The notes beneath the pieces were generated by a model that was not told the DNA's origin, did no database searches, and worked only from the letters and a program-made list of their open reading frames with translations. The translations under genes and the position numbers were made by a program. A stretch of DNA of 64,000 nt from Ignavibacteria bacterium (GTDB taxonomy: Bacteria > Bacteroidota > Ignavibacteria > Kapaibacteriales > Kapaibacteriaceae): NCBI GenBank assembly GCA_016707005.1, contig JADJIQ010000005.1, forward strand, positions 460,585 to 524,584, given 5' to 3'. Of this stretch, positions 15,130-43,469 are shown piece after piece. Position 1 is the stretch's first letter. The number at the start of each line of letters is the position of its first letter.

Positions 15130-15155
15130 CGGGCTGACGCAAGCTTTTAGGCACA

Positions 15156-15875: not shown

Positions 15876-15987
15876 GGGTCCCTCCTCAATAAAGTAGAAA
15901 ATGTATAAACCGCGTTCAGCGGCATCTATCAATAAATTTCTAGGGTAGGCAAATACAAAATAGAAAAAACTCGATTCCATCAAACAC

Positions 15988-21388: not shown

Positions 21389-21413
21389 TTCGAAGCACAA
21401 GCGGTACTTTTGT

Positions 21414-25331: not shown

Positions 25332-25537
25332 GACGTTGACGTTATGACGGTATGACGGTATGACGGTATGACGGTTATGACGTTATGACTGGTAACTAAG
25401 TAACTGCGTAACTGAGTAACTGAGTAACTGAGTAACTAAGTAACTGCGTAACTCTGTAACTGAGTAACTGCGTAACTGCGTAACTCTGTAACTGCGTAAC
25501 TAGTAACTGCGTAACTAGTAACTAGTAACTAGTAACT
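25332..25537. repeat. Largest tandem octamer array: 4 GACGGTAT units, then about 20 GTAACTNN units, degenerating into GTAACTA heptamers.
   Basis: It is read directly from the sequence. It occupies the position upstream of paaB where paaA would be expected. Its 3' part encodes the last 7 codons and stop of the gene at 25515..27818. Confidence 0.9.
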
Positions 25538-27818
25538 GACTTACCCCCACCATCTCCCCATTGGCCATTACCGTAAGCGAATAGGGTCCTGTTGGCAGAC
25601 CGTTCACGTTGAGGGTGATGTCTATTTCACCGTCCGGAACGCTGCGGGCAGACGAGTAGCCCATCACGCGTCCGGCAACATCATGCAGGGTGGCTGTTAG
25701 GTCCGCAGAGGGCCCCTGAACGTGTTTTACTGTGATGGTTAGAGAAGTAGAGGCCGGAACAGGAAAAGGGGCTGAGAGTCGCCACGAGGAGCCCGCACTG
25801 ATCACGAGTGCGGCCACACCTACATCGCAGCGAGATGAGCCGGTGAACGCGATGGGAAGCCCCTTACTTTGAATTGGGATCTTCCCAACAGAGCAGGTGT
25901 CGGGGAGGGCAAGAGTATCTTCTACAAGGCCTGTATCAATGGCCGAGGCACAGAGGGTGAGCTCGCCGATCTCACCGGGAGCGATGTTGATCGGGAATTG
26001 CGCTTGGGGCATCGAGAAGTAGACGTTGCCCACGAAGAACGGACGGGAGATCACCAGCGGTTCGTTGGTTGAGATGTTTCTGATGCGGACTGTGCGGCAA
26101 GCCAGGGTACCTACGTTGTGATCGTTGACGATGATCACGCCGCCGTCGCCGGGGCTGAATTGCACGTTCGCCTTGTTGCGGGTATCGAGCTTGACAACAC
26201 GCGTGGTGTCCGACGTGCCAATACAGCCATTGTCGTCCACCACCGTCACCACATAATCGCCACCCTGATCCGTTGTGATCGAGCTGCTTGTTTCGCCGGT
26301 ATTCCACTCATACTTGCGGAAACCGGGAGGTGCCGTTAGAGTGATCACGTCATCGAGACAGATCGTGAGTGACCGGTTTGCTTGGATTGTTGGTCTAGGA
26401 CGGGGGTTAACGGTTACGGTGATCTCCGACGTGGCGGTGCAGCCGGCGGAGTCGAGGGTTACACAGGTGTACTTCCCACTTGTCTTCACCACCGTGGACT
26501 GTGTTTGGTCACCATTGGACCACAACCAGGAGTTGATCGGCCCATCCACACTGAGGGTGATAGAATCTCCCTCACAGACAGTCTTCGGGATGGAGGTGAT
26601 ACGCGGTTCGAATGTGCTTTTCAAAGCAACTCGTATGGTATCCTTGGATTCGGCACATGTTGCTCTGTCATAGACGGAAACGATGTACCTGCCAGGTTCA
26701 GTCAGGTACCTGCCCGGGGACTTTACGCCATCGCTCCATGAATAATTGTCAACGGCAGAACGCGCTTCTACAAAGGCACTATCTCCCTTGCAGATCATGA
26801 TAACCTCATCAGCGGGGACGATGGCAACCTTTGGTCCGGCTGCATTGAAGTTACTTCTGTACACACCCTGACCAACGGCCCAGCCGAGCGTGTCGTTGAT
26901 GAAGAAGATATCGTCGATGTTTCCTCGGATACCACAATTACGGTTGGTCCAAGACTCCCCCGCATCGTCGGTATACAACACAGCCCTATCGTTGCCCACG
27001 CCCCATCCGCGACGTTCATCGAGGAGGAAACTGCCGAACATGTTTGCGCCGGTCTGATATTCTCGCCAAGATCGACCAGCATCGTTGCTATATCTAAGAG
27101 AACCGATTCCGCTGGCATTACCATCACACGTGTTACCGGCTGTTGGGATCAGCATGGCATTGCCGGAAATGGCGAGCTCCTCTGACCAGACCTTGCTGCC
27201 TGTTCGGGAGTAGATGCTCCATGACCGACCGAAGTCTGTTGTGCGCCACAGAACTCCGCTGCTCACAGCGAATCCACTTCCGTTACGGAAGATGATCCCG
27301 TCACTCAGTCCGCTCATCGGCTCGGTCCCATAGGACACCGTCCAGCTCTGTCCGGCATCGGTCGTCCGGTAGAATGCCTGTATACCTGATGCGCAGCCAC
27401 CAACGAAATACAGACCTTCGTTCTGATTGATCCAGTAGGAGCCCCATCCCTTTTCAAAATTGGGATCGAAGGGTGAGATGTCTCGCCAGGTTATCCCGCC
27501 GTCATCGCTGCGAAAGACGCCGGCATGACCTGACACGTAGCCGATCGAAGGCGTCAAGAACTGGACATATTCGAGAAATGCCCCTGGGATAGTAGAACCG
27601 CGCCACGTGGCACCGCCATCCGTGGTACGAATGATCTCACCATTCATCCCGCACACCCAGCCTAGATTCTGATTGCCGGGCAGGAAATAGACGTCGAGAT
27701 AATACCCTTGATCATAGGGAGGTGGCAACAATGCTTCCTTCCATTGCGCAGCAAGCGGTGCCGTTAGCGAACAGCAGAGCAAGACCAATGTTGCGATATG
27801 ACCAAAGGTTCTCTTCAT
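25515..27818 (-). CDS. T9SS-secreted BNR/Asp-box beta-propeller protein with Ig-like domains and a CTD.
   Basis: It has a signal peptide (LVLLCCSLTAPLAAQ), Asp-boxes (TTDGGATW, SDDGGITW, TTDAGQSW, TTDFGRSW, SNDAGRSW, TDDAGESW) and a CTD-like tail. Confidence 0.75.
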   Translation of the reverse strand: MKRTFGHIATLVLLCCSLTAPLAAQWKEALLPPPYDQGYYLDVYFLPGNQNLGWVCGMNGEIIRTTDGGATWRGSTIPGAFLEYVQFLTPSIGYVSGHAGVFRSDDGGITWRDISPFDPNFEKGWGSYWINQNEGLYFVGGCASGIQAFYRTTDAGQSWTVSYGTEPMSGLSDGIIFRNGSGFAVSSGVLWRTTDFGRSWSIYSRTGSKVWSEELAISGNAMLIPTAGNTCDGNASGIGSLRYSNDAGRSWREYQTGANMFGSFLLDERRGWGVGNDRAVLYTDDAGESWTNRNCGIRGNIDDIFFINDTLGWAVGQGVYRSNFNAAGPKVAIVPADEVIMICKGDSAFVEARSAVDNYSWSDGVKSPGRYLTEPGRYIVSVYDRATCAESKDTIRVALKSTFEPRITSIPKTVCEGDSITLSVDGPINSWLWSNGDQTQSTVVKTSGKYTCVTLDSAGCTATSEITVTVNPRPRPTIQANRSLTICLDDVITLTAPPGFRKYEWNTGETSSSITTDQGGDYVVTVVDDNGCIGTSDTTRVVKLDTRNKANVQFSPGDGGVIIVNDHNVGTLACRTVRIRNISTNEPLVISRPFFVGNVYFSMPQAQFPINIAPGEIGELTLCASAIDTGLVEDTLALPDTCSVGKIPIQSKGLPIAFTGSSRCDVGVAALVISAGSSWRLSAPFPVPASTSLTITVKHVQGPSADLTATLHDVAGRVMGYSSARSVPDGEIDITLNVNGLPTGPYSLTVMANGEMVGVSQLLVTSY

Positions 27819-28648
27819 CGGATGATGATCGCACGTCCCTTCATCAGTTTACGGTTGGAAGTGATCGCAACAACATACGCCCCTTGAGGCACTTGGGAAC
27901 CATCGTTGCCTCTGCCATTCCACGTATAGCGGAATGATTCGCCGGAAGCAATTGCATTGTCCGATGCTACAATAGCACCCAGATGGTCAAGGACGGTGAT
28001 CTGTAGTTGTTCGTTTGCCTGGGTAGGTACGGTCATTGACACCTGGTCGTGGGCAGGCACCGGTGAAACCACAACATCTACATCGGAGTACTCATCCACG
28101 GAATTGGGGAGTCCGACAACGACCTCCACCACAGGCATGCGATTCCATTGATCGATGGTGCCGGCACTGCCATCTCCGTTCACGGCATTGCCAATGGCCC
28201 GAAGATAATAGGTACCGGGTTGGGAGGGGGCTGTCCAGGTAAAGGTAAATGACGCCTCGTTGTCGACCAATGGTTTCGGCGTAGAATGAGTGAGTTCACC
28301 GGCAGAGAGTCTCAACCCCTGACCAGTCACGATCCCGAGGGTACCTGCGTTCGTGGTCCCTTGTTCGGTGGACTTTACGGCTATTCCAACTCCCGCAGCT
28401 TGTCGTGAAAGATGGGACACTACTACGGTGAGGGTAATGGTCTCCCCACTCACGGCAGAGAGCTTTCCGTCTACAGCTTGAACAACGCGCAATGTAGTGG
28501 CTGGGTTCGCTGAAGATGCGGCTCCATGACATCCCGAACCTGAACAACCGGGAGAGTTCAGGGCTGTGCGTCCTGCCTGACCAGAACCGCTGGCGAAAAG
28601 TCCAGTGGATGCAACGATCAAGATCACAAGAGTAGAGAAGATCCGCAT
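27815..28648 (-). CDS. Small T9SS-secreted protein with an N-terminal C-x4-CH motif and a CTD.
   Basis: It has a signal peptide and the motif GCSGSGCHG right after it. The C-terminus is CTD-like (GAYVVAITSNRKLMKGRAIIIR). It overlaps the upstream gene by 4 nt. Confidence 0.65.
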   Translation of the reverse strand: MRIFSTLVILIVASTGLFASGSGQAGRTALNSPGCSGSGCHGAASSANPATTLRVVQAVDGKLSAVSGETITLTVVVSHLSRQAAGVGIAVKSTEQGTTNAGTLGIVTGQGLRLSAGELTHSTPKPLVDNEASFTFTWTAPSQPGTYYLRAIGNAVNGDGSAGTIDQWNRMPVVEVVVGLPNSVDEYSDVDVVVSPVPAHDQVSMTVPTQANEQLQITVLDHLGAIVASDNAIASGESFRYTWNGRGNDGSQVPQGAYVVAITSNRKLMKGRAIIIR

Positions 28649-28724: not shown

Positions 28725-28766
28725 GCCAAAATAAAAAGCGGGGACGCACTGACGTGCGTCCCCGCT
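28725..28766 (-). terminator. Rho-independent terminator of the giant gene.
   Basis: A 13-bp perfect stem agcggggacgcac/gtgcgtccccgct with loop tgac is followed on the minus strand by a T-rich tract. Confidence 0.7.
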
Positions 28767-28790: not shown

Positions 28791-31700
28791 TTAACGACGG
28801 ACCAGACGGACCACCCAACGTTCGCTACCCGTGGTGACGACCACGTTGTAGACACCGTTGGCGAGGATACCCATGTCGACCGACGTGCGGAATGCACCGC
28901 CGTTTGCGGCCTCATTGAGTGTCATCACCAGCTCGCCGACTGCATTGACAAGTTCAATGCGAACCGGACCAGCTTGTGTGATCGTTGTTTCGATAGAGAA
29001 CTGACCATTCGATGGATTCGGGAAGACGCGGAGTTCGGCTTGACGGCCGGCTACTACATCTTCATCGACATCCGTGAGGATAACATCGAATGCTTCAGAG
29101 ACCGAGGCGCAGGTGTTGTTATCTGCGATCTCAACACGGTACGAGCCTGGCAGAGCCACTGTGTACGTCTTGGCCGTAGCTCCAGCGATCATTGTTCCGT
29201 TGCGGAACCACTGCCACGACTGAGCAACTGCTGAGTTCGCGGTGAGAACATCACCCATGCGGGAGATCGTAGGAATAACAGGCAAGCTGTTCACCGTTAC
29301 CACTGTCTTAGTTGAGTTAGCAGGGCACGACGTGTTGTTCGTGACCGTAACCCAGAACTCGCCACCATTTTGCACCGTGATCGTGCGGCCAGTTGCGCCG
29401 TTCGACCAGATGTATGATGCGTAGCCAGCAGGTGCAGTAAGTGTTACAGCACCACCTTCGCAGAACGTGGTTGGGCCGTTTGCTGTGATGACAGGAGGAG
29501 CGACAGGAGCGACCGTGATACCAACGGTATCGGACGAACCAACGCAACCATTCACGTCAACAACTTGGCAATAGACCGTATCCGTTTGACGGATGATGAT
29601 CGAGCGAGCTGTGCCGTAATTCGTGCCTGAAGTAGATACCCATGTGTACGATACGAAGCCAGCCGGTGCGCGTACTTCAACGCTGTCACCTGAGCAGAGA
29701 TTCGCAGAACCAATGAGTGTAAGAACCGGTGCAGGTGTTGGATTCACAACTACGTCAACTTCCGTTGATGTGCCTGTGCAGCCATTGTTATCAGCAACAG
29801 TTACAGTGTACGAGCCAGATTGTGTGACCACGATCGATTGCGTTTGAGCGCCGTTCGACCAGAGGTACGCATTGAATCCGGAAGGAGCTGTAAGTGTTAC
29901 GCTACCACCTTCACAGAACGTTGTTGGAGCATTGATCGCGATGATCGGCAGCGTGCTTGGGAATACGTTCACTTGGATCGTATCCGAGCTATTAGAGCAA
30001 CCGTTTTCATCCGTCACTGTGCACCAGTACTTGCCCGTTGTGCGAACAACGATGCTACGTGCTGTTTCACCTGTGTTCCAGATGTACGAAGAGAAGCCGA
30101 TCGGTGCGCTGAGAGTCACATCTCCACCTTGGCAGAATGTCGTCTGGCCAGAAGCCGTCAGAACTGCGTTTGGAAGAGCGTTGACTGTAACGTTGATCGT
30201 ATTCAGAACCGTGCAAAGGAAGCCATTCACTTCTGTAACCGTCAGTGTAGCAGCACCCGGGAGTGTCCACTCAACTGTTACGTTCGGTGTGCCTTGACCA
30301 GCACGGATGATGTTGCCACCAGAAACTGCCCAGCTATAGGTGTTACCAGGGATACCCGGTGTGCTATAGTTCTGAAGCGAATTCTGGCAAGCAGACCTTG
30401 GACCAGAAATGACTGGGTTCGGAAGCGGATTGATCGTTACAGACAGCGATCCAGTTGCTGAGCAACCGAAGCTCGATGTATGTGTGACCGTGAGGTTACC
30501 CGTGATCGGTGTAAGACCAGAGTTAGCCCACTGAACACCGATCGTGAGTGTTCCTTGACCCGAGACGATAACACCGTTTGTTACAGTCCAGCTTGGCTGA
30601 AGGCTACCTGAGCCCGCTGTGATCACAGGGATGCTCGATGTATACGTTGCCGTGTTGATGGTTGCTGGCGAATCTGAAAGATCCGTTGCGCAGACCGGTG
30701 ATGGACCTGTGATCGATGGTGTTGGAGGAATTGGACGGATTGTGACGTTGAGCGTGTTCACACCGAAGCATGTGCCTGCAGGGAGAACATCAGCAACATC
30801 TTCACGAACGCTAACCGTAGCAGCTGTCGTGTTCGGCCAAACCGGAGCACTCCACGTTACACGGATCGTGTTCGGAGCAAGGTTCACATACGTGCCGCCA
30901 ACAACGGTCCATGTATATGCATTACCCGATACGAATGGTGTTGTGTAGTCTTGAACGCTGTTGCCACATGGATTGACTTGACCTGTAACGACCGGCGTTG
31001 GCGTCGGACGGATCAGGATCGTGTCAGTATCCGTTGTGATACAGTCAGAACCAGGAACAGTCTCGGTGCAAGCGATGGTACCGTTACCGGCAGCACCCCA
31101 AAGAACCGTGATCTGATTTGTGTTGCTACCAGCAGTGATCGTACCACCTGTTACAACCCACTGGAAGACATTTCCAGGTGTTGGTGTTACAGAGTAGACG
31201 TGTGTGCTGTTGTTGCAAACGATACCCGGACGGCGTGTGATCGGATTACCGTAGCCCGTTGCAGACTGGATGTCTGGCGTTGGGATCGGGTTAACGCGGA
31301 TGTTCACCGTTGTTGTTGTGAAGCAGAAGCCACCAAGAGCTGTTTCTGTCACACTCATTGTGTGAAGACCAGGCTGGATCCAGCGAACTGTGATCGTGTT
31401 GCTTGTTGGATATCCTGCGATCGTAGCGAAGGCGTTCGTTGGTGTGATCACCCAGTTATAGGTGCTACCTGGAACGGCTGGCGTAGAATACGTGTGTTCC
31501 TTGTTGATACAGACAACTGTCGAACCTGTGATGTTCGGTGTTGGCGTGTAGCTCACAGCAACATTCTGCGTAACAGTCTTGAAGCACGGCGTTCCCGTCG
31601 TGGTTTCTGTTACTGTCAGCGTGTTGTTGCCGATCGTCTGCCACGTTACCGAAACAGTGTTAGCTGTTGCTGTACCGTTGATAACACCACCTGTTGCAGT

Positions 31701-34700
31701 CCAGAGATACGAGCTCGTGCCAACGAATGGCGTTGAGTACGTGATCGTTTGACCTTGGCAAGCTTGGTTTACAGCACCACCCGGTGTTACGCGGGAGATG
31801 GCTGTTGCTGTTGGTGTTTGCTGAACAGTGACGTTCAGTGTTGCACTGCGGAAGCAGTTACCAGAGACGTTTGTCTGCGTGACGCCAACAGCATATGTAC
31901 CAGCGTTATTCCATGTGACGGTTACGCTCGAACCAGTGATGGAGGAGACGATCGTGCGATCGGCTGCCGTACCACCAATTGTCCAGTTGTACGTGTGACC
32001 AGGAACTGCTGTTACTGAATATGTCTGCGTTGTACCAGAGCAAACTGGTGTGCCACCAGAGATGACTGGGTTTGGCTGCTCTTCAACCGAAACGTTGAGC
32101 GATGTTGTGCCGACGCAACCGGTGTTAGCCGTTGCTGTCTCAACAACTGTCAGCGTTTGATTTCCGAGTGCTGTCCAGTTCACTGTCACTGCATTTGCAT
32201 TGTTGACACCAGTGATCGTACCGCCCGTTACTGTCCAGAGGTACGTTGTACCGCCAAGGTTCGGAGTGGAGTACGTGATCGTCTCATCCAAGCAAGCTTG
32301 GTTAAGAAGACCAGCTGGTGAAGTACGTGTAATGACCGGAGTTGGCTTAGCAGTTACTGTAACGTTCGCTGTAGTTGTGACGACACAAAGACCAGCTGTT
32401 TCCGTTACCGTAAGTGTGCGTGTACCGGCTGTGAGCCAGAGCACTGTGATCGTGTTGTTCGTTGTACCAGAAGCGATCGTACGATCCGTTGCTGTGCCCG
32501 AAACCGTCCAAGCATATGTGCTGCCAGCTTGTGCCGGTGTGCTATACACTTCTGTTGAGTTCGAACATGCATTGAGATTGCCGGAGATCGTTGGCGTTGG
32601 CATGCGTGTGACAGCAACATTCTGAGTCACAGTCTTGAAGCACGGCGTTCCCGTCGTGGTCTCCGTCACTGTGATCGTGTTGTTACCAACTGTCTGCCAT
32701 GTTACCGAGACAACGTTTCCTGTAGCCGAACCGTTGATCGATCCACCAACTACTGTCCAGAGATATGAGCTTGCGCCGTTCGCTGGTGTTGAGTAGGAGA
32801 TCGTTTCACCGTTACATGCTTGATTGAGCGGAGTACCAGAGACACGCGAGATCGCAGTGGCTGTTGGTGTCTGCTGAACCGTCACAACAAGATTTGCTGT
32901 GCGTGAGCAGTTACCGGAGTTGTTCGTTTGAAGGACCGACACCGTGTAGGAACCGGCGTTGTTCCACGTTACGGACATGCTGCTACCAGTTACACTCGTG
33001 GTGATCGTGCGATCTGCTGCCAGACCGGTGATCGACCAGTTATATGTGTGACCAGCGACGGCTGTTACCGAATACGTTTGTGTTGAACCGGAGCAAACAG
33101 GTGTTCCACCTGAGATAACCGGATTTGGCTGCTCTTCAACCGAAACGCTGAGCGAAGTTGTTCCGACGCAACCGGTGTTAACCGTTGATGTCTCTACAAC
33201 CGAAAGCGTTTGGTTTCCGATAGCTGTCCAGTTGATGGTTACAGCGTTCGCATTGTTTACACCAGTGATCGTTCCACCTGTTACCGTCCAGAGGTACGTT
33301 GTGCTACCACCGTTTGGTGTGGAATACGTGATCGTCTCATCCAAGCAAGCTTGGTTAAGAAGACCGAGCGGAGATACACGTGTGATGACCGGAGCTGGCT
33401 TAGCAGTTACTGTGACGTTCGCCGTGGCCGTTGCTGTGCAAAGACCAGCGGTTTCAATCACTGTAAGAGTGCGAGTGCCGGCTGTGAGCCATTGAACTGT
33501 GATCGAGTTGTTTGTCAAGCCCGAGGTCGTGCGATCTGCAACTGTACCCGACACAGTCCAAGCATACGTGCTACCGGCCACTGCTGGTGTGCTATATGTT
33601 TCGGCGCTATTCGAGCATGCGTTGAGATTGCCCGTGATCGATGGTGCAGGCATGTACGTTACAGCAACGTTGAGCGTAGAAGTAGCCGAGCAAAGACCCG
33701 TTGCTTCCTTCTCAACAACTGTAAGTGTCTGCGTGCCGATCGTTGTCCAGCGAACTTGAACTGCGTTCGTTGTTGCGCCAGAAACGATCGTTGCACCAGT
33801 TACCGTCCACTGATACGTTGCTCCAATGTTGTTAGCAACAGAGTAGGCAACGTTACCTGGGTTTGTGACCGCGTTGTATGCGCACACTTGTGTTGGACCA
33901 GTGATGGTCTGCACTTGTGGCTGATAACGGATCGTGACGAGCACTGTGGCCGAACCTGTGCAACCGCTCAGAGTATTCGTTTCTGTCACTGTAACGTTTG
34001 ACGACAGTGTAGAACCAACACCTGGATTGGTGAACTTGATCGTGAGGGCATTAGTACCCGAGCCACTTACGATCGATCCGTTAGAGAAGCTCCACGAATA
34101 CGTGTTGCCCACAACGTTCGGCGTGCTGTATGTAGCGATCTGCTCACCGCACACGTTTGTCGGACCAGTGATGGCCGGCGCAGGTGGGTTCGTGATCGTT
34201 ACGTTCTGTGATACAGTGGTTGTGCACTGTGATGATGTGTGCCACTTAGCAAGAGTGATCGTGCCTGTACCTACAGTGTTCCACTTGACATAGACAGTAG
34301 TGCCATTGTCCGGACCAGGATTGTTACCTGTTACATCCGAGATAATGCCGCTTGTAGCTGTCCACTTGTACGAGAACGTACCAGCAGTTGGATCTGTCTG
34401 ACCATACTGGATCACTTGGTTAAGGCATGAGCCACCTGTTGCACCACCTGGGGTGAGACGCGTGATCGTCGGAGCCGGTGTTGGAACGATCGTGATCGTG
34501 CGTGTTACCGTCTTCGAGCAAGTTGTAGCGTTTGTTGTTTCAACAAGCTGGAGCGTGAACGAGTTGCCACCGCCGATAGCGCCCGTAAGGACCGTTGCTG
34601 TTGCCTGATTGGCACCAGCTGTGATCGTTGCGTTACTACCGCCGAGCATTGTCCATGCATAGCTGTTAGCAGGAGCATTGTTTGCTGTGCTGTACGATGC

Positions 34701-37700
34701 AACGGCATTGTCGCACACTACGCCTGGGCCATTGATGACCGGGTTCGGCGTTGGGTTAACGTTGACGTTGAGAGTTGTACGGTTGAGGCAACCAACAACA
34801 CTTGTTTGTGTAAGCGTGATCGTAGCATTCGGGTTAGGAGTTGTACCCCATGTTACCGTGATGCTATTGCCATTCACTGCTGTGATCGTCGATGGGTTAC
34901 CAACAACACCTGTGCCTGTTGCACCACCTGGTGTTGTGATCGTTCCACCAACAACATCCCACTTATACGTGTCGCCCGTGAAGAGCGTGGCCGTGTAGAT
35001 CGAAGTCGACGTTGGTGAACCAGTTGAATTCTGGCAAACCTGCGTTGGACCTGTGATCACTGGCTGTGGTTGTGGGTACACCGTCACGTCATACGTGAGG
35101 TTCGTCACGCAACCACCGTGTGACGGTGGAAGTGTTACAGCAAGCTGGATCTGACCGATGTTCGTGCCGCCCGTAGCGTGCCACTCTGTAACGATCGATG
35201 TTGTGTTTTGACCGCTGCGGATCACACCGACAACAGGACCAGTTGGCATGTTCCAGAGATACGTTGTTCCGGCAGGGAACACGCAACCAGGTGCACGTGC
35301 TACTGTGTACGTTGTGAGGTGCTCTTCGAAGCCACCATAGATACATGCCGTTGTTGGACCGCTGATCGTAGCATCTGCAACAGTTGGGTTGATCGTCACC
35401 GTCACAACCGCTGTGTCAGGGCATCCGAAGACGTTCGTTTCGATCATGCGGACCTTCACAGGCAATGGATTGTATACACCATTGCATGAAAGAAGGTGGG
35501 TTCCCCATGTTGTGACGAACGGATTAAGCGTACCAAAGCCTGTGTTGTTTCCAACGAGTGGAGTTGTACCTGTTGGAGGATTTGTTGTTACCGGAATCTC
35601 TACGGTGTTGTCGACAACACCAAGGATCTTCCAATCATACGTTGCAGCCCATCCACCGAAGGAAGGAGTTGCAGCCGTATATGTACCAACCGATGGACCA
35701 CATGCTGGGTTTGAACCCGAGAATGAAGCAACCGGCTTAGGATTGACGGTAACGTCCGTACCCGGAGCATCTGATACAGGGCAAGCTGAAGCTGGGATCG
35801 GACGAGCATAAACTCCTGCACCGGTGCGCAGTTGAGCGCGCACTTCGAAGTTTACGATCGTTGGAACGGCTGGGTTTGTCGGAAGAACGCTGAGAGCTGG
35901 AATCGAGATCGGACCGATCGCGCCACCAGTACCATTGAAGGTAACAGCAGGAGCCATCGAAACACCGTTGCGGAGGATCTCATACGTTACACCGTCTTGT
36001 GAACCAGCCTGGGTGAAGATCACCGGCTGTTCCCAACAAACTGGGTTCGGTGTGTAGCTATTCGCTTGAACAAGCGGAAGAGCGAAGACCGTAGCTGTTG
36101 GATGCTGCGTGAGGATCACGAAGCAAGCAGGCGGATTCGTGTTCGACGTTGCAACTACTTCATACTCGTAGTTCGCAGCGGCAAGCAGTGGATAACCACC
36201 AACTGGGTTTGTGTTGTCGGCAAGGAGGAGTGCTCCACCTGTACCTACAGCGCTAATACCAGTTGACACGAATGCTGCCGGTGGCAATGCTGCACCGGTT
36301 GCATTGTCGCGGATCTGACGACGGAAGAGTTCATACGTTACCCAGTTCTCAGATCCAGCTACTGTAACGTTTACGAGGTCACCAAAGCACACAGGCGTTG
36401 GAGCGATCGTTACAGCAAGAGCTGCATTCGGGATCTGATGAACATTAACTGTGGCATCACCTGTCGAAACGATATACGGTCCGCATACCGGAGCAAGATT
36501 AGATGCTACAACACGGAACAGATACACCGTAGGTGCAGGAGCAACAGTTGTGAAGGCAAGATCTGCTGTAGGAACAACAAAGTTCAGAGCAGCACCAGTA
36601 CCATTTTGAGCAGCAACCGTTGCGTTAGCCCATGTACCACCACCGTTGGTTGAACGTTGGACTTGATACGAGTAACCAACTTGCGAGTTTGCAAGCGTGA
36701 GTGGTGCCGTTTGGGCACCCGTGTTGCAGATGTCTTGTGGTGTAACACCAAGAGCATACTGAGTTGGGATAACATTGAGTGTGACGTTGTAGTCAGGTGT
36801 CGTTGCACCGCAACCACCAGGGTGCACTTCCGTGACCTTGATCTTTGCAGGTGACGCACCATAGAATACAACACGCACGCGTGATGCATTCAATGTGCCC
36901 GGAAGAAGCTGGCTAGCAACCGGAGCTACGTTACCAGCGATCGTTGTGTATGCACCACCATTGTTCGTTGAGTACGCAACGATATAACCATTCGATATCT
37001 GCCACGAGTACGTGTTGCCAAGTACTTGTGGAGTAGCGAAGTCATATGTGTACGTGAACGGACCAGCGTGTGGCATGCCAACCGGATCTACCAAGTTCTG
37101 GCAGACAACGTTTGGATTCAAGCCAGCAGTAGGAACATTGATAACGATCGATGGAGTTGGAACCGGGTCAACTACGAAGTTTGTCACTGTTGACGTTCCG
37201 CAACCCGAAATAGCATCAACCCCTGTCACTGTAATTGACTTCGGACCTGCACCACCAAGATTTGTGATCTGACGTGTGAGGTCGGGAGCTGGTCCAGCCG
37301 CATTCAGAACTATGCCACCACCTGGAACCCAAACATAGTTAACTCCCGGTTGGCCTGCCCCACCGTTTGTTGCCACTGCAACATTGATCGGTACCGGTGT
37401 ATTGACGCAGAATGGAAGAACCGGAGCAAATGTGATCGGAGCCGGTGCAGGACGTGCATAAAAGGTTGTGTTGGTTGAACCAACCAAGCTGACGCAGCCT
37501 GCTGCCGATGTGAGTTGTGCATTGATCGTCACGACAACGCTCTGTGGTACAAGTGCCGCGTTTTGTGGCAATTGACCCCATGTGATCGTACGTGCGACGG
37601 CACCAACTGGCTGAGCAAAAGGACTGCCAGTTACAACTGTTCCAACCGGAGCGCCAGTTACGTTAACTGCAAGCGAACCAGCCTGAGCCGTTGTGATCGT

Positions 37701-40700
37701 GTAGTTCGTCGTAGAAACTGGGTTCTGCGGGGAAGCTGCACACGCTGTTGCCACCGGTGTGATGACCGGAGCTGAAGGCACCTGGTTGATCGTGAACGCC
37801 TGCGTCACAGTTGCTGCACAAGTGGTTGTTGTGTTTGTTACTGTAAGTGTAAGCGAGTACGAAGATGTAGCAGCCGGAGGATTCGTGAATGTCACGATCA
37901 TCGTTGGATTGTTATTCACGCCAAGCGTACCGATACCGTCTACGTCAAGGGCTTCTGCCCACAAGTAGGTAGGAGCACCACCACCATTGACAAGTGCCAA
38001 TGTTGAGAACGTATGCGCTTGATTACCGCAAAGCGTTGGAGCTGGTGCACCAATGCTGAACGTAGGATTTGGGTTGATCGTGATTGTGTAGGTCTTTACA
38101 GCCGCACAACCACCTTCTGTGTATTCATGAGAGATGGTACCGGTTCCGGCAGCACCCCACTGAACACTAAATCCACCAGGACCAACTCCAGTAACGCCCG
38201 GACCACCAAGAGCATAGCCACCAACGAATGGGGCTTGTGGTGTTCCACCTGAAATTGTAAACGAATGGGACCCAGCACCTGTTGCGGTATACGCGACTGG
38301 TGCTGCTGGTGACGCACACGTTGCAAGTGCTCCAGTGAGTACAAAGGCTCCTGTAGGAGGAGTCGCAATAACAGTCACATTAAGCGTCGAGCTAGCGTTA
38401 CAGCCAAGGGCAGTACGCTCATCAACGGTAACTGTGCCTGCACCTGGGGCTGACCACTGAACAGTGATAAGCGATACACCAAGATTGACGTTTCCAGGTG
38501 TTGTTGTAGATGTTGCAGGAAGAGCAGTTGTTGTTGCTGCATTCGCTGCGACGATCGTTCCACCACCACCAGTGACCGCCCAACGATAGCTGTTGCCAAC
38601 TGTGACCGTATTGAGCGTGTATGAATACTGAATTGGGTTTGGAGCCGATTGGTATGAAGGATTACCAAGTGTGGCAGGTACAAACTGACAAGGTGTGTTC
38701 GAACCAACGATCGATGGCGTTGGGAGCGGGTTAACCGTTGTTGTTGTGCTATACGTGCGTGTGCAACCACTAGCAGTTGTTTCAAGAACAGTCATTGTTC
38801 CTGTACCAGCTGCCGTCCAGTTAAGCTGACGCGACTGATTTGCAACAACGTTTGCCGCAAGTGGTGTTCCGTTTGGATATCCGGCTGAACCGCCAGTATA
38901 TACAAATGGAAGACCTGAGGCCGTGTATGTATATGTATTACCCGCAACACCAACAAGGCCAGTTCCGCCATTGTTCGTGATGGAGTACGTCATATTCGTA
39001 CCGGCACAAACACTCGCAACTGAACCGGCTACCGCATTTGTTGGCGGAAGTGGGTTAACAGTAAAGGATGTCTGCAACACCGGTCCTGGGCAGAGATTGC
39101 CCGGCCCGTTGAAAGCCTGCACTTGGACCGTTACTGTTGCAGCCGCGGCCGGTTGTACCGGTTGATTCGTTACGGTGACGACCTTTGTGTTCGTGCTACC
39201 TGCAGGGAATGTAGCTCCGATGGTGTTCGTTACGAACGCCCATGCATAGGAACCATAACCAGCAGGAGTCGAGTAAGTCACATTGTTCGAGCCTGTTGCC
39301 ACCGCACAGATAGCACCTGGTGCTACTGTAAGAGGTCCAACCGGAACCGAATAGATCGTTACACGATTAACGAACGTGCTGATCGCTGAGCAGTTCGTTG
39401 GTGCCGGACCAGTTTCTGTTACCTGGATGTTGTAGCTCGTACCGGCGTTCGATCCGCCAGCAGGATACTGGATATCCGCGATCTGGTTCTGAGCACCCGA
39501 AAGGATGATCGTGGCACCAGGTGCTGTTGTCGACCATGCCAGTGTTGATGTAGCAATAGATGGTACAGCTACATATTGAACAGTTGCACCTTGGCAAATG
39601 TTCTGAGTACCTGTGATCGAGCCAATTGCTACCGGTTGGGCATTCGCAACAACTGCATAATCCGCAGTTTGAACCGTTGTACAGTTATTGAGCGTTGTGA
39701 TACCATAATAGTACCACGTACGATCCACCGTTGCGGCAGGAAGGGCTGTAACGAGATCCCACGTAGGTCCAGCGCCGCCAATTGTTCCAAGTGCTGTTCC
39801 ACCTGCACCTACGCAAGGCACATTTGGAGTTGGGCAGCGGAAGAAGGCTGTTTGTGTGCCAGCGAGTGCCAGCGGACCAGGAACCCATGAGTATACTTCA
39901 TTGAGGAATGGACCGCCAGCGCCAGGACGTTGGTCTTGACCAATCGTTGCTTGCGGTGGCTGACAAAGCGAGAGAAGACCGATCGTGTGTTGGTCTTGAG
40001 CTGCTTGAACGTTCAGAGCGTTGTCGTCGATCTGCTCTACGAAGATGTCGATCTGACCAGCATCTGCGTCACCTTCAAGGTGAAGGACCAGCTGAACAGA
40101 GACTGTTGCAGGATTTGGAGCACCCGGTGGGATCGGTCCCGGTGGGTTTGGATAGAAGTACGGAACATCGTCAAACGTGACGATGAGCGTTGTACCTACG
40201 AGTTCATACCAGATCTGTCCGCCAACCTGTGGCGAAAGGTCCGTATTTGCCAGGTAGATAGCATCATATGTAGCACCTGCACCCGGAGCGGCCAGATTGC
40301 GCGGGGCGATCTGAACTGCGAGTGGGTCGTTGCGGAACGTGATGAAACCATTCGAGCCTACATAGAAGCCGTCAACCGCAAGGTCAATGAGGCGTCCATG
40401 AAAACGGAATTGGCCGGCAACGTTCTGCTCAGCAGAAACTTCGTCGTCGTCCAATGCCAGATTAACCTCGGCGCCGCCTGGTGCGGCGAATGCGTAGCCA
40501 GGTGCAGCACCGTTAACAGCATAACCGATATTGATACCGGGAGCTGTCAGGGTGGCCCGAAGTGTTGTGTTCTGTCCTGCACAGACCGGGTTCGGACCCG
40601 GACTGGCCAACAGATCAACGGTTTGCGCCTTCACCGAGATGCCTGTTAGCAACCCGGCGGTCGTAATGACCGTCAACAACAGAGCCTGGAGCCAACGCCC

Positions 40701-40745
40701 CACACTCCGTTGTCGCGAAGAGAACGCGGAATCGAATCGATTCAT
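28791..40745 (-). CDS. Giant T9SS-secreted adhesin-like protein of about 3984 aa, built from dozens of Ig-like/beta-sandwich domains.
   Basis: A continuous 12 kb ORF with a signal peptide (MNRFDSAFSSRQRSVGRWLQALLLTVITTAGLL; GGAGGA SD at -4). It has pervasive repeats of about 100 aa (YSTPA..GSTYAWTVSG...TLTV.ET) and a classical CTD (RVFPNPSNGQFSIE...GVYNVVVT...VVRLVRR). Alternative starts lie at 40799 and 41012. Confidence 0.85.
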   Translation of the reverse strand: MNRFDSAFSSRQRSVGRWLQALLLTVITTAGLLTGISVKAQTVDLLASPGPNPVCAGQNTTLRATLTAPGINIGYAVNGAAPGYAFAAPGGAEVNLALDDDEVSAEQNVAGQFRFHGRLIDLAVDGFYVGSNGFITFRNDPLAVQIAPRNLAAPGAGATYDAIYLANTDLSPQVGGQIWYELVGTTLIVTFDDVPYFYPNPPGPIPPGAPNPATVSVQLVLHLEGDADAGQIDIFVEQIDDNALNVQAAQDQHTIGLLSLCQPPQATIGQDQRPGAGGPFLNEVYSWVPGPLALAGTQTAFFRCPTPNVPCVGAGGTALGTIGGAGPTWDLVTALPAATVDRTWYYYGITTLNNCTTVQTADYAVVANAQPVAIGSITGTQNICQGATVQYVAVPSIATSTLAWSTTAPGATIILSGAQNQIADIQYPAGGSNAGTSYNIQVTETGPAPTNCSAISTFVNRVTIYSVPVGPLTVAPGAICAVATGSNNVTYSTPAGYGSYAWAFVTNTIGATFPAGSTNTKVVTVTNQPVQPAAAATVTVQVQAFNGPGNLCPGPVLQTSFTVNPLPPTNAVAGSVASVCAGTNMTYSITNNGGTGLVGVAGNTYTYTASGLPFVYTGGSAGYPNGTPLAANVVANQSRQLNWTAAGTGTMTVLETTASGCTRTYSTTTTVNPLPTPSIVGSNTPCQFVPATLGNPSYQSAPNPIQYSYTLNTVTVGNSYRWAVTGGGGTIVAANAATTTALPATSTTTPGNVNLGVSLITVQWSAPGAGTVTVDERTALGCNASSTLNVTVIATPPTGAFVLTGALATCASPAAPVAYTATGAGSHSFTISGGTPQAPFVGGYALGGPGVTGVGPGGFSVQWGAAGTGTISHEYTEGGCAAVKTYTITINPNPTFSIGAPAPTLCGNQAHTFSTLALVNGGGAPTYLWAEALDVDGIGTLGVNNNPTMIVTFTNPPAATSSYSLTLTVTNTTTTCAATVTQAFTINQVPSAPVITPVATACAASPQNPVSTTNYTITTAQAGSLAVNVTGAPVGTVVTGSPFAQPVGAVARTITWGQLPQNAALVPQSVVVTINAQLTSAAGCVSLVGSTNTTFYARPAPAPITFAPVLPFCVNTPVPINVAVATNGGAGQPGVNYVWVPGGGIVLNAAGPAPDLTRQITNLGGAGPKSITVTGVDAISGCGTSTVTNFVVDPVPTPSIVINVPTAGLNPNVVCQNLVDPVGMPHAGPFTYTYDFATPQVLGNTYSWQISNGYIVAYSTNNGGAYTTIAGNVAPVASQLLPGTLNASRVRVVFYGASPAKIKVTEVHPGGCGATTPDYNVTLNVIPTQYALGVTPQDICNTGAQTAPLTLANSQVGYSYQVQRSTNGGGTWANATVAAQNGTGAALNFVVPTADLAFTTVAPAPTVYLFRVVASNLAPVCGPYIVSTGDATVNVHQIPNAALAVTIAPTPVCFGDLVNVTVAGSENWVTYELFRRQIRDNATGAALPPAAFVSTGISAVGTGGALLLADNTNPVGGYPLLAAANYEYEVVATSNTNPPACFVILTQHPTATVFALPLVQANSYTPNPVCWEQPVIFTQAGSQDGVTYEILRNGVSMAPAVTFNGTGGAIGPISIPALSVLPTNPAVPTIVNFEVRAQLRTGAGVYARPIPASACPVSDAPGTDVTVNPKPVASFSGSNPACGPSVGTYTAATPSFGGWAATYDWKILGVVDNTVEIPVTTNPPTGTTPLVGNNTGFGTLNPFVTTWGTHLLSCNGVYNPLPVKVRMIETNVFGCPDTAVVTVTINPTVADATISGPTTACIYGGFEEHLTTYTVARAPGCVFPAGTTYLWNMPTGPVVGVIRSGQNTTSIVTEWHATGGTNIGQIQLAVTLPPSHGGCVTNLTYDVTVYPQPQPVITGPTQVCQNSTGSPTSTSIYTATLFTGDTYKWDVVGGTITTPGGATGTGVVGNPSTITAVNGNSITVTWGTTPNPNATITLTQTSVVGCLNRTTLNVNVNPTPNPVINGPGVVCDNAVASYSTANNAPANSYAWTMLGGSNATITAGANQATATVLTGAIGGGNSFTLQLVETTNATTCSKTVTRTITIVPTPAPTITRLTPGGATGGSCLNQVIQYGQTDPTAGTFSYKWTATSGIISDVTGNNPGPDNGTTVYVKWNTVGTGTITLAKWHTSSQCTTTVSQNVTITNPPAPAITGPTNVCGEQIATYSTPNVVGNTYSWSFSNGSIVSGSGTNALTIKFTNPGVGSTLSSNVTVTETNTLSGCTGSATVLVTIRYQPQVQTITGPTQVCAYNAVTNPGNVAYSVANNIGATYQWTVTGATIVSGATTNAVQVRWTTIGTQTLTVVEKEATGLCSATSTLNVAVTYMPAPSITGNLNACSNSAETYSTPAVAGSTYAWTVSGTVADRTTSGLTNNSITVQWLTAGTRTLTVIETAGLCTATATANVTVTAKPAPVITRVSPLGLLNQACLDETITYSTPNGGSTTYLWTVTGGTITGVNNANAVTINWTAIGNQTLSVVETSTVNTGCVGTTSLSVSVEEQPNPVISGGTPVCSGSTQTYSVTAVAGHTYNWSITGLAADRTITTSVTGSSMSVTWNNAGSYTVSVLQTNNSGNCSRTANLVVTVQQTPTATAISRVSGTPLNQACNGETISYSTPANGASSYLWTVVGGSINGSATGNVVSVTWQTVGNNTITVTETTTGTPCFKTVTQNVAVTRMPTPTISGNLNACSNSTEVYSTPAQAGSTYAWTVSGTATDRTIASGTTNNTITVLWLTAGTRTLTVTETAGLCVVTTTANVTVTAKPTPVITRTSPAGLLNQACLDETITYSTPNLGGTTYLWTVTGGTITGVNNANAVTVNWTALGNQTLTVVETATANTGCVGTTSLNVSVEEQPNPVISGGTPVCSGTTQTYSVTAVPGHTYNWTIGGTAADRTIVSSITGSSVTVTWNNAGTYAVGVTQTNVSGNCFRSATLNVTVQQTPTATAISRVTPGGAVNQACQGQTITYSTPFVGTSSYLWTATGGVINGTATANTVSVTWQTIGNNTLTVTETTTGTPCFKTVTQNVAVSYTPTPNITGSTVVCINKEHTYSTPAVPGSTYNWVITPTNAFATIAGYPTSNTITVRWIQPGLHTMSVTETALGGFCFTTTTVNIRVNPIPTPDIQSATGYGNPITRRPGIVCNNSTHVYSVTPTPGNVFQWVVTGGTITAGSNTNQITVLWGAAGNGTIACTETVPGSDCITTDTDTILIRPTPTPVVTGQVNPCGNSVQDYTTPFVSGNAYTWTVVGGTYVNLAPNTIRVTWSAPVWPNTTAATVSVREDVADVLPAGTCFGVNTLNVTIRPIPPTPSITGPSPVCATDLSDSPATINTATYTSSIPVITAGSGSLQPSWTVTNGVIVSGQGTLTIGVQWANSGLTPITGNLTVTHTSSFGCSATGSLSVTINPLPNPVISGPRSACQNSLQNYSTPGIPGNTYSWAVSGGNIIRAGQGTPNVTVEWTLPGAATLTVTEVNGFLCTVLNTINVTVNALPNAVLTASGQTTFCQGGDVTLSAPIGFSSYIWNTGETARSIVVRTTGKYWCTVTDENGCSNSSDTIQVNVFPSTLPIIAINAPTTFCEGGSVTLTAPSGFNAYLWSNGAQTQSIVVTQSGSYTVTVADNNGCTGTSTEVDVVVNPTPAPVLTLIGSANLCSGDSVEVRAPAGFVSYTWVSTSGTNYGTARSIIIRQTDTVYCQVVDVNGCVGSSDTVGITVAPVAPPVITANGPTTFCEGGAVTLTAPAGYASYIWSNGATGRTITVQNGGEFWVTVTNNTSCPANSTKTVVTVNSLPVIPTISRMGDVLTANSAVAQSWQWFRNGTMIAGATAKTYTVALPGSYRVEIADNNTCASVSEAFDVILTDVDEDVVAGRQAELRVFPNPSNGQFSIETTITQAGPVRIELVNAVGELVMTLNEAANGGAFRTSVDMGILANGVYNVVVTTGSERWVVRLVRR
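31500..33650. repeat. Intragenic tandem duplication inside the giant gene: two units of about 1.05 kb (about 350 aa) at roughly 85-90% nt identity.
   Basis: Hand alignment shows, for example, 32221 ccgcccgttactgtccagaggtacgttgta... against 33271 ccacctgttaccgtccagaggtacgttgtg..., an offset of about 1050 nt. Protein blocks RMPAPSITGNLNACSNS... and RMPTPTISGNLNACSNS... match. Boundaries are approximate. Confidence 0.7.
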
Positions 40746-41217
40746 ACGATCCTCCAAATGAGACTTTGAAATACTGTTACTCTTACTGTTATTCTTCATA
40801 GTTGACGTGGTCTGTTCCCCATTCACAAACACCAATTGGCGCCCGAGGCGCCTTGATTTTTCAGATTGTGCATTGTCGCGTAGAGTCATAATGTCCTTCC
40901 GAACCGTTGGATTGAAACGGCACGGCGCACAACACCCCCGTTGCCAGAGGCGTGTACATCGTCGCGAAAATAGGTCGACGGAGCGGTTCCACCAAACACG
41001 ACTTTGCCACAAAGCATCATATATGCCATGGGACTAGCGTTTTTCGCGAATATGTTCTGCGTCGTCTGAGTCATTGTCTTCGATCAGCGTTGTTTTTATG
41101 TGTTGCTACGTGGTTCTACGTAGACAAACCTGTGAAACAGATTCCACACCACCAAGGACATTGGACCAGATCACGGTGGGTCACCCCCCGAAATCCAGCC
41201 CACCTTGATGGCAGGAG

Positions 41218-42243
41218 CTATTCCACAAGCCCCGTGCCAAATTCCTGGGAGTTACGCATATCGTGCACGTATTTCCATAGGTCTTCGATGAGTTCGGTGA
41301 TGCCTTCTTGAGCAACGGCTGAGATGATCTTTGCCTTGTGCTTCTTTACAAACTTGCCTTTAGCCAGTTCTGCGAGCTCGTCAGGGGTGAGGGTGTCGGC
41401 CTTGGTGAGTCTCACAAGCCATGGTTTCTTGAGGAGCGACGCGGAATATTGGCCCAATTCATTACGAAGGGTCTTTAGGTCCTTTTCAGGATCCTCAGAC
41501 ATCACGTCGATCATAAAGAGGAGAACTGCGGTCCGTTCGATGTGACGAAGGAACTGGATCCCAAGCCCCTTGCCCTCATGAGCCCCCTCGATCAGTCCAG
41601 GGATGTCAGCAACGGTGAAGCTGCGATACTCACCTGCCCGCACAAGCCCAAGGTTGGGCACCAAGGTTGTGAACGGATAGTCTGCGATCTTGGGCCGCGC
41701 TGCCGAGATCGTGGCAATCAGCGTGCTCTTGCCGGCATTTGGGAACCCTACAAGACCAACATCTGCCAAGATCTTGAGTTCGAACTCAATGTCTCGCTCT
41801 TCCCCTGGCGTTCCGGGGTCTGACATACGGGGCGCCTGGTTGATCGATGTCACAAACTCGGAGTTGCCCCGACCGCCCATGCCGCCATGGGCAACAGTAA
41901 CTCGCTGACCCTGCTGGGTTAGGTCGGCGATCTGCTCCTTTGTCACCTTGTCGCGTATCACGGTCCCTACCGGAACACGGATGACCACGTCATCCCCACT
42001 CCTGCCTGTACAGTTGCTCTGTCCGCCTCGTGCCCCACTCACGGCCTTGTAGTGCCTGCGGTACGTAAAGTCAAGCAGCGTACCGAGTTGACGGTCGGCC
42101 TCGATGATGATGGAGCCACCTTTCCCGCCGTTTCCGCCGTCGGGACCACCCTTGGGGACGTATTTCTCGCGTCGGAATGAGATGTGGCCGGGACCACCAT
42201 CACCGGCCTTGACGTTGATCCAGGCGGTATCGATAAAGTTCAT
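41218..42243 (-). CDS. obg: GTPase Obg/CgtA.
   Basis: The Obg fold N-terminus (FIDTAWINVKAGDGGPGHISFRREKYVPKGGPDGGNGGKGG) is present, with G-motifs GFPNAGKST and DIPGLIEGA. Start is at MNFID (42243). Confidence 0.95.
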   Translation of the reverse strand: MNFIDTAWINVKAGDGGPGHISFRREKYVPKGGPDGGNGGKGGSIIIEADRQLGTLLDFTYRRHYKAVSGARGGQSNCTGRSGDDVVIRVPVGTVIRDKVTKEQIADLTQQGQRVTVAHGGMGGRGNSEFVTSINQAPRMSDPGTPGEERDIEFELKILADVGLVGFPNAGKSTLIATISAARPKIADYPFTTLVPNLGLVRAGEYRSFTVADIPGLIEGAHEGKGLGIQFLRHIERTAVLLFMIDVMSEDPEKDLKTLRNELGQYSASLLKKPWLVRLTKADTLTPDELAELAKGKFVKKHKAKIISAVAQEGITELIEDLWKYVHDMRNSQEFGTGLVE

Positions 42244-43421
42244 ACAAAGCTCCTGTGCAGGGCCTGGGCAAATTCCATGGCTGCCGTACTGTCCGGCGCC
42301 ACTCCCTGACGGGCAAAAAATCTGTCGACTACTCCGGCTGCTTCCTTCCACTCGGCACACCTGAGCACGTCGGAAACCACCCGTGAATACAACTCCGCGT
42401 CTTTATTGAAGACTTTCTTGATCACCCGTTCCTTTGAGCTGACATCGAGCATGGTTCTGAAACGCTCTTCCCTGCCGGCGTGTACATCCGGGATGTCTGG
42501 AACCTCGGGGATCTCGGCCGTTATCTCGGTTTCCACGAGTTCAGGAACCGGCTCTGGTAATGGTTCGGGTACAGGTTCGGGCACTGGTATCGGGTCAGAA
42601 GGCGCTGGTGTGATCGCTTCGGGAACGGTCTCTTCGATGTTGGCGATCACGGTATCGATCACGTCAAAGAACTTGAGGCGGGTAAGGGCGCGGAGCTCTT
42701 CCCGATACAGCAGGCGCTCCAGAGCTTGGGAGATCGGGACAGCCCCTTTATCATCGAGGAAGATGATCACGGCCTCGGTAGGGACGGATTCAGGTGGTAG
42801 GTCGGGGTCCGCCTCCGCAAAGAAGGCATAGATGCCATCGAGCAGGCGGACAAACTCGTCCTGAGACAGATCGAGGATGGCATCGTTGTCCACCTTCTCT
42901 ACGATCCGCTCGAACTCCACAACGCTGAGGATCTCGTTGGCCGAGGACTCTGCCGGACGTGCCTTGGCCCATTGGCGGATGCCTTCCAGCAGGTAGGTGT
43001 TATCTGTGAGGTAGTTGAGCCGGAGAAGGATCTCGTAAAGGGGCTTGGTGGGCTCCCCACGGAAAACGAACCACTTTAGGGTGGTACGCGGCCGTACGAG
43101 AAAATTCAGTCGGGTCTTAACAGCAGCATCGATCGTGGCGGTCAGTTCCTCATGATCGAACCTGGCGGACTTGATGTAGAGATCATCGAGTTTGGGGAAC
43201 ATGGCACGCAACGCCTCATTCCCGGTATCGAACCGCGGATTGGACGAACGGATTGCCCTCTCTTCATGGAGCCACCACTCGGCTTCCGCACGGAAATACG
43301 CGCGGTAGGCGGGATGAACGTTCTCATTGGCCAAGATGGCCGAGAGGGGGATGCTGGGCTGACGCGTGTCGAGCTGTTGTTTCAGCTGTTTGCGGACACG
43401 GTCAAGTTCCTTTTCAAACAT
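42240..43421 (-). CDS. Hypothetical protein with a Pro/Glu-rich linker (PEPVPEPLPEPVPE).
   Basis: A 393-aa ORF overlapping obg by 4 nt. No recognisable catalytic motifs were found. Confidence 0.55.
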   Translation of the reverse strand: MFEKELDRVRKQLKQQLDTRQPSIPLSAILANENVHPAYRAYFRAEAEWWLHEERAIRSSNPRFDTGNEALRAMFPKLDDLYIKSARFDHEELTATIDAAVKTRLNFLVRPRTTLKWFVFRGEPTKPLYEILLRLNYLTDNTYLLEGIRQWAKARPAESSANEILSVVEFERIVEKVDNDAILDLSQDEFVRLLDGIYAFFAEADPDLPPESVPTEAVIIFLDDKGAVPISQALERLLYREELRALTRLKFFDVIDTVIANIEETVPEAITPAPSDPIPVPEPVPEPLPEPVPELVETEITAEIPEVPDIPDVHAGREERFRTMLDVSSKERVIKKVFNKDAELYSRVVSDVLRCAEWKEAAGVVDRFFARQGVAPDSTAAMEFAQALHRSFV

Positions 43422-43469
43422 GGAATCTGTATCTCTGTGCTAGCACGCAAGATACGACATACCAAGCGC

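Follow-up and report, generated by a model that had tools for sequence, protein, structure and literature searches.

Giant fibres built of immunoglobulin (Ig)-like repeats and exported via a type IX secretion system (T9SS) are a recognised class of surface protein, with SprB and GhpA as examples, and almost nothing is known of them beyond Flavobacteriia, Saprospiria and Porphyromonas. SprB of Flavobacterium johnsoniae is a giant, repetitive T9SS cargo that serves as a surface filament protein. GhpA of Aureispira sp. CCB-QB1 is a 5898-aa T9SS substrate that forms a surface appendage and has Ig repeats with disulfides; seven parallel chains, each with 52 Ig-like repeats, make up a 'grappling hook' 240 nm in length, the N-terminal hook itself accounts for 1400 aa, and ghpA is adjoined by PorP/PorE-like genes (ghpB/ghpC) (bioRxiv 10.1101/2024.01.29.577165). 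Here we describe a 12-kb gene in a 64,000-nt stretch of the Kapaibacteriaceae contig JADJIQ010000005.1 (hereafter the window), whose predicted product combines a Sec signal, a NIDO-like head, a long stalk of Ig-like modules and a T9SS sorting domain. The gene is real and intact, comes from a Kapaibacterium-like bacterium (Kapaibacterium is placed in Bacteroidota) and belongs to an uncharacterised family; its product works like the GhpA and SprB fibres yet is a member of neither family. The class itself is known; what is new here is the uncharacterised member, its NIDO-like head, its conserved position and an unusual leader.

The giant coding sequence lies on the minus strand at 28791..40745 (3984 aa plus the stop codon), and starts at an ATG preceded by the Shine-Dalgarno sequence GGAGGA (40750..40755, minus), with a 4-nt spacer to the ATG at 40745. 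The frame is free of internal stops, in agreement with the initial annotation, which had described a single uninterrupted open reading frame (ORF) of about 12 kb and 3984 aa with a Shine-Dalgarno sequence and terminator of its own; an ORF of 3984 codons cannot arise by chance. For comparison, 22 orthologous loci were available, comprising ten genome-collection loci and twelve further contigs (L011-L022); nine loci came from scanning a single genome for each GTDB species, and the twelve further contigs from look-ups of a small upstream ORF. Between the window and the contig CALMZQ010000003.1 of a metagenome-assembled genome (MAG; L002), changes at codon positions 1, 2 and 3 number 18, 23 and 87 over 328 codons. 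Because of this excess of third-position changes relative to orthologues, the ORF can be regarded as a real coding sequence under purifying selection. The string GGAGGATCGTATGA is unchanged in 21 of the 22 loci, the remaining one (L008) having a single G-for-A change (GGAGGG). Downstream, the intrinsic terminator (28727..28766, minus) consists of a GC-rich 13-bp stem (28766-28737) with 10 G-C pairs and a 4-nt loop, followed by the T-run TTTTTATTTT; it folds with a z-score of -6.0, a stability that not one of 200 shuffles equals. A look-up of the exact 3984-aa product returned no record.

The abundance of repeats, the metagenome-type origin of the sequence and a scaffold gap in one orthologue raise the question of whether the ORF might be a pseudogene in decay or a chimera produced when repeats collapsed during assembly, the latter having been named in the initial annotation as what would overturn it. 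The modules are typically about 35% identical to one another, and the most similar internal DNA repeats reach 73-76% identity. A four-module cassette is present as a tandem duplicate (aa 2347-2696 and 2697-3048; 31602..33707, minus; period 1053-1056 nt), the copies of which share 79% of their amino acids and 74.5% of their nucleotides, with 39% of the identical residues in different codons; this is the sole recent duplication in the gene. Tandem Repeats Finder reported nothing on the giant gene, where periods exceed 500 nt and copies are diverged. Furthermore, collinearity with the window is seen in three assemblies made independently of it: a contig from wastewater (L012; 98.7% over 5.8 kb), a Logan contig (L011; 89% over 7.6 kb) and the L002 contig (85% over 8.5 kb, the duplicated cassette included). 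Since the internal repeats are too diverged to collapse and independent assemblies agree, the gene is not an assembly artefact; the lack of internal stops and the purifying selection likewise speak against decay, and we consider that the chimera or pseudogene explanation has next to no chance of being correct. The gene thus stands.

At its N-terminus the product has a predicted Sec-type signal peptide (aa 1-40; 40626..40745, minus), reading by inspection MNRFDSAFSSRQRSVGRW / LQALLLTVITTAGLLTGI / SVKA↓Q, in which a basic n-region leads into a hydrophobic core of 18 residues and cleavage would fall at VKA↓Q. The signal peptide was claimed by the initial annotation and is kept in the orthologues, and the glutamine at +1 agrees with the 'Q-rule' for substrates of signal peptidase I in Bacteroidetes (PMC5837995). 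A mass of about 394 kDa and a pI of 4.8 would follow for the mature protein (aa 41-3906). Beyond the head, an iterative hidden Markov model (HMM) built by us and seeded with one repeat recovered 35 repeats of 86-120 aa each, spanning aa 350-3820, with one further Ig_7-like module beyond these reaching about aa 3900; the consensus, TYSTPxxxGxTYxWTVTGGTIxxxxxxNxxTVxWxxxGxxTxTVTET, agrees with the motif quoted in the initial annotation, whose dozens of diverged β-sandwich repeats are thereby borne out. In total the stalk comprises about 38 tandem Ig-like modules, namely about 30 of the PKD_6 type, three variants and five of the Ig_7 type. They are arranged, on the minus strand, as a first block of about ten PKD_6-like modules (~aa 350-1310; 36816..39698), three variant Ig-like modules without a Pfam match (~aa 1311-1650; 35796..36815), a second block of about twenty PKD_6-like modules (aa 1651-3506; 30228..35795), the two PKD_6-like blocks being defined by Pfam together with our HMM, and four or five Ig_7 ('CHU_C-associated') modules recognised by Pfam (aa 3507-3900; 29046..30227), the part closest to the GhpA stem repeats. 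PKD_6 (PF19408) scores above its gathering threshold (194.5 bits against a cut-off of 25, in 8 stretches), our HMM extending the match to about 30 modules, as does Ig_7 (PF19081; 54.3 bits against 27.3, in 5 stretches over aa 3500-3905). The C-terminus (aa 3907-3984; 28794..29027, minus) is a T9SS type A sorting domain: Por_Secre_tail of Pfam (PF18962; 36.2 bits, cut-off 27) and TIGR04183 of NCBIfam (type A; 27.6 bits, cut-off 23) both match aa 3907-3982 above their curated cut-offs, in support of the classical sorting domain initially annotated. This domain also has a weak match to a 75-residue PDB chain labelled 'Endonuclease I' (8glk_D; E = 0.024).

Each module contains two invariant cysteines, with spacings of about 25-31 and 59-70 residues. 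An AlphaFold2 model of two consecutive modules, computed with an alignment of the protein's own repeats, has a mean predicted local distance difference test score (pLDDT) of 94.1 and a predicted template modelling score of 0.77; each module is modelled as a seven-strand Ig-like sandwich running from P-x-P-x-I-T-G to V-x-V, with one cysteine on the first strand and the other at the F-G turn. Foldseek searches with the pair point to bacterial surface proteins and adhesins, namely GhpA, SbsB and SraP.

The N-terminal head (aa 41-350; 39696..40625, minus), which the initial annotation had overlooked, contains a NIDO-like core (~aa 85-227; nt 40065-40493) followed by a β-rich subdomain. The NIDO domain (PF06119) also occurs in the nidogen, mucin-4 and alpha-tectorin of animals, as well as in proteases that bacteria secrete. 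A Pfam search with aa 42-350 recovered no family even at E <= 10, and the PF06119 model itself gives no match. A HMMER search with the head against 1.84 billion representatives returned 32 matches, among which are three or four giant proteins (2332-3802 aa) sharing the N-terminus. The weaker matches (n=29) cover query residues of about 40-160 and lie in unrelated secreted proteins; in ten of them Pfam detects a NIDO domain (best E = 9e-30), and in P0011, P0014 and P0027 its coordinates coincide with the region matched by the query. The NIDO-carrying proteins also bear trypsin, subtilase, thermolysin and fungalysin domains, some with T9SS or PEP-CTERM tails. The head and the NIDO segments share the motifs LGDD..S, F.F.G, Y(V/I)(G/S)SNGF(I/V)TF, DL.P..GG.I.(W/Y) and VP, and an hhalign comparison of the heads of the giant proteins with NIDO-positive bacterial segments gives a probability of 99.1% (E = 2e-18). 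On account of these shared motifs, the coincident coordinates and the profile alignment, we take the core of the head to be a divergent NIDO-like domain, a homologue of the Pfam family rather than one of its members, that differs from NIDO in an additional LIDLAV insertion and a proline-rich loop. A profile search gave only six matches and was swamped by low-complexity words, a search with the head alone recovered a single partial orthologue, and the AlphaFold2 model of the head has a pLDDT of 72. To our knowledge, no function has been established for NIDO domains, even in animals, and no study of NIDO domains from bacteria turned up in our search of the literature; the partner domains in the other proteins suggest that the head is a targeting or binding module.

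We propose that the giant protein is probably an adhesin, a fibre about 150 nm long that is tethered to the surface by its C-terminus and bears a NIDO-like binding head at its distal end; the length is scaled from GhpA (240 nm for 5898 aa). In this scheme, Sec would carry the protein across the inner membrane with cleavage at VKA↓Q, the chain would fold once in the periplasm, each module probably gaining a disulfide between its two cysteines, and the T9SS translocon would recognise it via the C-terminal domain. In type A cargo, as modelled on Porphyromonas gingivalis, the PorU sortase removes the C-terminal domain and joins the new C-terminus to surface lipopolysaccharide; the giant protein would be cleaved by PorU and linked to surface lipopolysaccharide in the same way. 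The tethered fibre would hold the head away from the cell to bind its ligand, be it a surface, a polymer or another cell, with duplication or loss of cassettes changing the repeat number and so tuning its reach. Whereas the export signals and the domain architecture can be read off the sequence, adhesion is what we infer from them; adhesion via the head is the most economical reading and a likely one, and the description 'adhesin-like surface protein' in the initial annotation is in this sense reasonable.

Several points weigh against this proposal. The similarity of the head to NIDO is transitive and at the profile level only, the Pfam model remaining silent, and no solved structural relative of the head was found. 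One disulfide per module, though probable, rests on cysteine conservation. Genes for SprA/Sov, PorK-N and PorU/V are absent from the 64-kb window, and a T9SS in the host is presumed solely on the strength of the cargo tags. There are three candidates for the start codon, 40745, 40799 and 40889. Finally, anchoring and release after cleavage of the C-terminal domain cannot be told apart by sequence. Some type A cargo in Bacteroidota is freed into the medium, and the giant protein might accordingly be released to serve as a matrix, a coat, an S-layer-like scaffold or a decoy. The S-layer protein SbsB is the top Foldseek match of the module pair by E-value and the surface is very rich in threonine (16.6% of the full 3984-aa product), in keeping with release; but the TM-score of SbsB is low (0.38), reflecting a generic Ig tandem, only seven glycosylation sequons of the form D(S/T)(A/I/L/V/M/T) are present, and a protein whose long stalk carries just one distinct head, at the N-terminus, suits a tethered fibre more than a lattice former. 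We therefore consider release unlikely, if somewhat less so than the alternatives drawn from GhpA and SprB, and retain the tethered adhesin.

Among PDB sequences, GhpA (9flp and fragments) is the sole match at E <= 0.001 (phmmer E = 2e-79, in 14 stretches), and GhpA fragments are among the best Foldseek matches of the module pair (TM 0.45-0.60, 19-26% identity). The two proteins also follow the same logic: both have a Sec signal and a C-terminal sorting domain, and in both the N-terminal head sits distally on a long cysteine-bearing Ig-like stalk. These likenesses would fit a grappling hook of the GhpA type, in which copies bundled side by side form a rigid multimeric appendage that catches prey or partner cells. 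However, it is mostly the five Ig_7 modules (aa 3500-3812), aligning repeatedly along the GhpA stem, that give rise to the sequence match, and aa 1-2500 of the query have no significant stretch in common with GhpA, the sole one (aa 468-589) scoring below zero. In place of the 1400-aa hook there is a 300-aa NIDO-like head; the stalk has about 38 repeats, mostly of the PKD_6 type, where GhpA has 52 that are Ig_7-like; the C-terminal domain is of type A; and the genes downstream encode choice-of-anchor V and BNR proteins rather than the PorP/PorE-like products of ghpB and ghpC. The lineages differ too (Kapaibacteriaceae as against Aureispira), and no genes of a type VI secretion system were seen within the window. 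A grappling hook thus seems to us a poor prospect.

As very large, repetitive proteins carrying T9SS export tags, the giant protein and SprB are alike, which would be expected of a mobile gliding adhesin propelled along the cell surface; a gliding-associated filament was indeed among the roles put forward in the initial annotation. Unlike SprB, the whole protein has no SprB repeats (PF13573) at E <= 0.01, its C-terminal domain matches type A models only, with no hit to the type B models (CHU_C PF13585 / TIGR04131) at that threshold, and no sprF- or PorP-like partner gene is adjacent; no gliding genes were seen within the window. This role is not borne out and we regard it as very improbable. 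With generic type A T9SS proteins that bear PKD_6 or Ig_7 repeats the protein shares all three families (PF19408, PF19081 and PF18962, each above cut-off), whereas the head, the linkage to obg and the conserved leader are specific to the family of this clade.

Wherever the upstream sequence suffices, i.e. in all loci but L022, the order is obg, a small ORF and the giant ORF opening with M(N/T)(R/S)(F/I)(D/G)S. Obg identity to the window goes down to 62% across nine genome-collection loci. Complete orthologues are 2332-3979 aa long, those scored having 21-36 repeats that match the repeat profile of the window; the orthologue of L001 has one four-module cassette fewer, and PF19408 and PF18962 are on record for the orthologous products in the precomputed Pfam annotation. 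The gene is accordingly a conserved, syntenic gene of the clade, linked to obg and variable in stalk length. The initial annotation had favoured a strain-specific adhesin; this does not hold, as the obg-linked gene is present in all recovered loci and the repeat number alone varies, and a strain-specific island is ruled out by the synteny and by the ordinary GC content around the gene. Labels on the records read Candidatus Kapaibacterium or Kapabacteria, Ignavibacteria or Melioribacter, and on two of them (L008 and L010) 'Hyphomicrobiales'; on a Bacteroidota-type locus the latter is probably a mis-binning or labelling error. In the L001 locus (a Kapabacteria MAG), a run of N at 10638-10666, at the proline-rich loop of the head, splits the orthologue so that two partial genes are annotated.

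Between obg and the giant gene lies a leader of about 470 nt, likewise overlooked by the initial annotation together with its possible upstream start. It is more conserved than synonymous sites: between the window and L002 there are 8 changes in 250 nt of leader, as against 87 in 328 third positions. The frame of the giant gene continues upstream without a stop for 48 codons (40746..40889, minus) to an ATG at 40889-40887, which would give a product of 4032 aa; a mechanical search for the longest ORF reaches as far as a TTG at 41012. The extension is open in the ten genome-collection loci (48-64 codons, with 0 stops versus 1-7 in other frames), and in the other twelve contigs (L011-L022) 48 or 60 codons separate the upstream ATG from the main ATG, in frame, with gene callers beginning the giant gene there in all twelve, which are independent of one another. 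A third in-frame ATG is found at 40797-40799 (minus), in the context MKNNSKSNSISKSHLEDR-MNRFDS, 18 codons 5' of the main start, and the peptide is similar in several orthologues. Overlapping the upstream ATG is the TGA of a 62-aa ORF (40886..41074, minus), the two forming ATGA; the small ORF and this overlap are present in all 22 loci, with an ORF length of 59-73 aa among the ten from the genome collection. Gene calls place it, as a hypothetical protein, in 19 protein clusters, none of which is annotated, and it belongs to no Pfam family.

The open frames, the in-frame indels and the ATGA overlap in 22 loci at first suggested that the leader is coding. Its substitutions, however, are without codon periodicity (for example 9/9/9 and 13/16/21, versus 52/42/159 in the gene body). 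The 62-aa ORF and the 48-codon extension were therefore dropped as conserved proteins, given the lack of a third-position excess and a conservation exceeding that of synonymous sites. Several nucleotide-level elements are seen instead. A GC-rich hairpin or palindrome, GGCGCC-N3-GGCGCC (GGCGCC-TCG-GGCGCC here; 40838..40852, minus), is 98% paired, with three pairs changed on both sides; pairing of the helix is kept by compensatory changes in L003 and L004, which in L004 turn the encoded residues RRLGR into GHQWC. The other helices proposed for the leader show no covariation, structural support being weak except for this one 6-bp GC helix, and Rfam has no family in the leader. A conserved, operator-like palindrome, TGTGGAAT-CT-GTTTCACA (41131..41148, minus), reads TGTGGAATCTGTTTCACA in the window and is a perfect TGTGAAAT-CT-ATTTCACA in some orthologues; with about 60 nt between it and the small ORF downstream, it resembles a site that a dimeric regulator would bind. 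Further upstream, a sigma-54-like -24/-12 element, TGGCAC-N5-TTGT (TGGCACGGGGCTTGT; 41225..41239, minus), overlaps obg at its 3' end in the window, and every clade retains TTGGCACGG-N4-TTGT, whether within obg or intergenic; the 64-kb window holds two matches to such a motif, against 0.5 expected.

Our own reading is that the leader is likely regulatory and partly translated, that coding for the mature protein would in effect start at 40745, and that 40889 is a possible alternative start. Transcription would then, hypothetically, proceed probably from the sigma-54-like box at the end of obg, with a start predicted near 41213, through the regulatory leader. If it is indeed regulatory, the leader would illustrate how cells govern expression of so costly a 12-kb gene. 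A broader model, which we put forward as a tentative possibility, joins the sigma-54 promoter, the operator-like palindrome, the translated 62-aa ORF with its ATGA and the compensated GC hairpin into one cis-regulatory unit of about 470 nt, of a sort not described before, in which translation of the leader controls either expression or the choice between the normal protein and one extended by 48-64 residues, and sets this unit before a clade-wide, NIDO-headed appendage of the Kapaibacteriaceae, possibly bundled as in GhpA. Of all features at this locus, the leader is the most novel.

The Kapaibacteriaceae family provides a conserved, syntenic example of a giant T9SS Ig-repeat fibre. It could serve as a tractable bacterial model for NIDO-type binding; close copies of the gene (98.7%) occur in a wastewater metagenome, and the protein is a candidate for what determines attachment or the formation of flocs. 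The findings on the giant gene do not overturn current understanding.

In the neighbourhood, obg is upstream of the giant gene and two smaller genes with T9SS-type C-terminal tails are downstream of it. These encode a 277-aa choice-of-anchor V and FlgD_ig protein (27815-28648, minus) and a BNR/sortilin-like protein (25515-27818, minus); a BNR-repeat protein with a T9SS-type tail is encoded at 4236-6266 (plus). Of these three window proteins with tails resembling the sorting domain, one scores above the Pfam cut-off and two slightly below it. A 1171-aa PKD/Ig_7 protein in which no C-terminal sorting domain was detected is encoded at 17873-21388 (plus), and is followed by a TonB-dependent receptor (21327-23531, plus). 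The region 12001-16000 has a GC content of 0.47, compared with about 0.53 elsewhere, and may be acquired DNA; two ORFs without a Pfam match, 12676-15168 (830 aa) and 15156-16004 (282 aa), adjoin a histidine kinase and response regulator pair. On the other side of the giant gene, 42240-44482 (minus) holds a gene for an extracytoplasmic function (ECF)-type sigma factor (43844-44482) and then two ORFs without annotation (124 and 393 aa). In the L001 locus the ECF sigma factor and the two ORFs follow this order too, upstream of obg, and the three genes could constitute a sigma/anti-sigma module.

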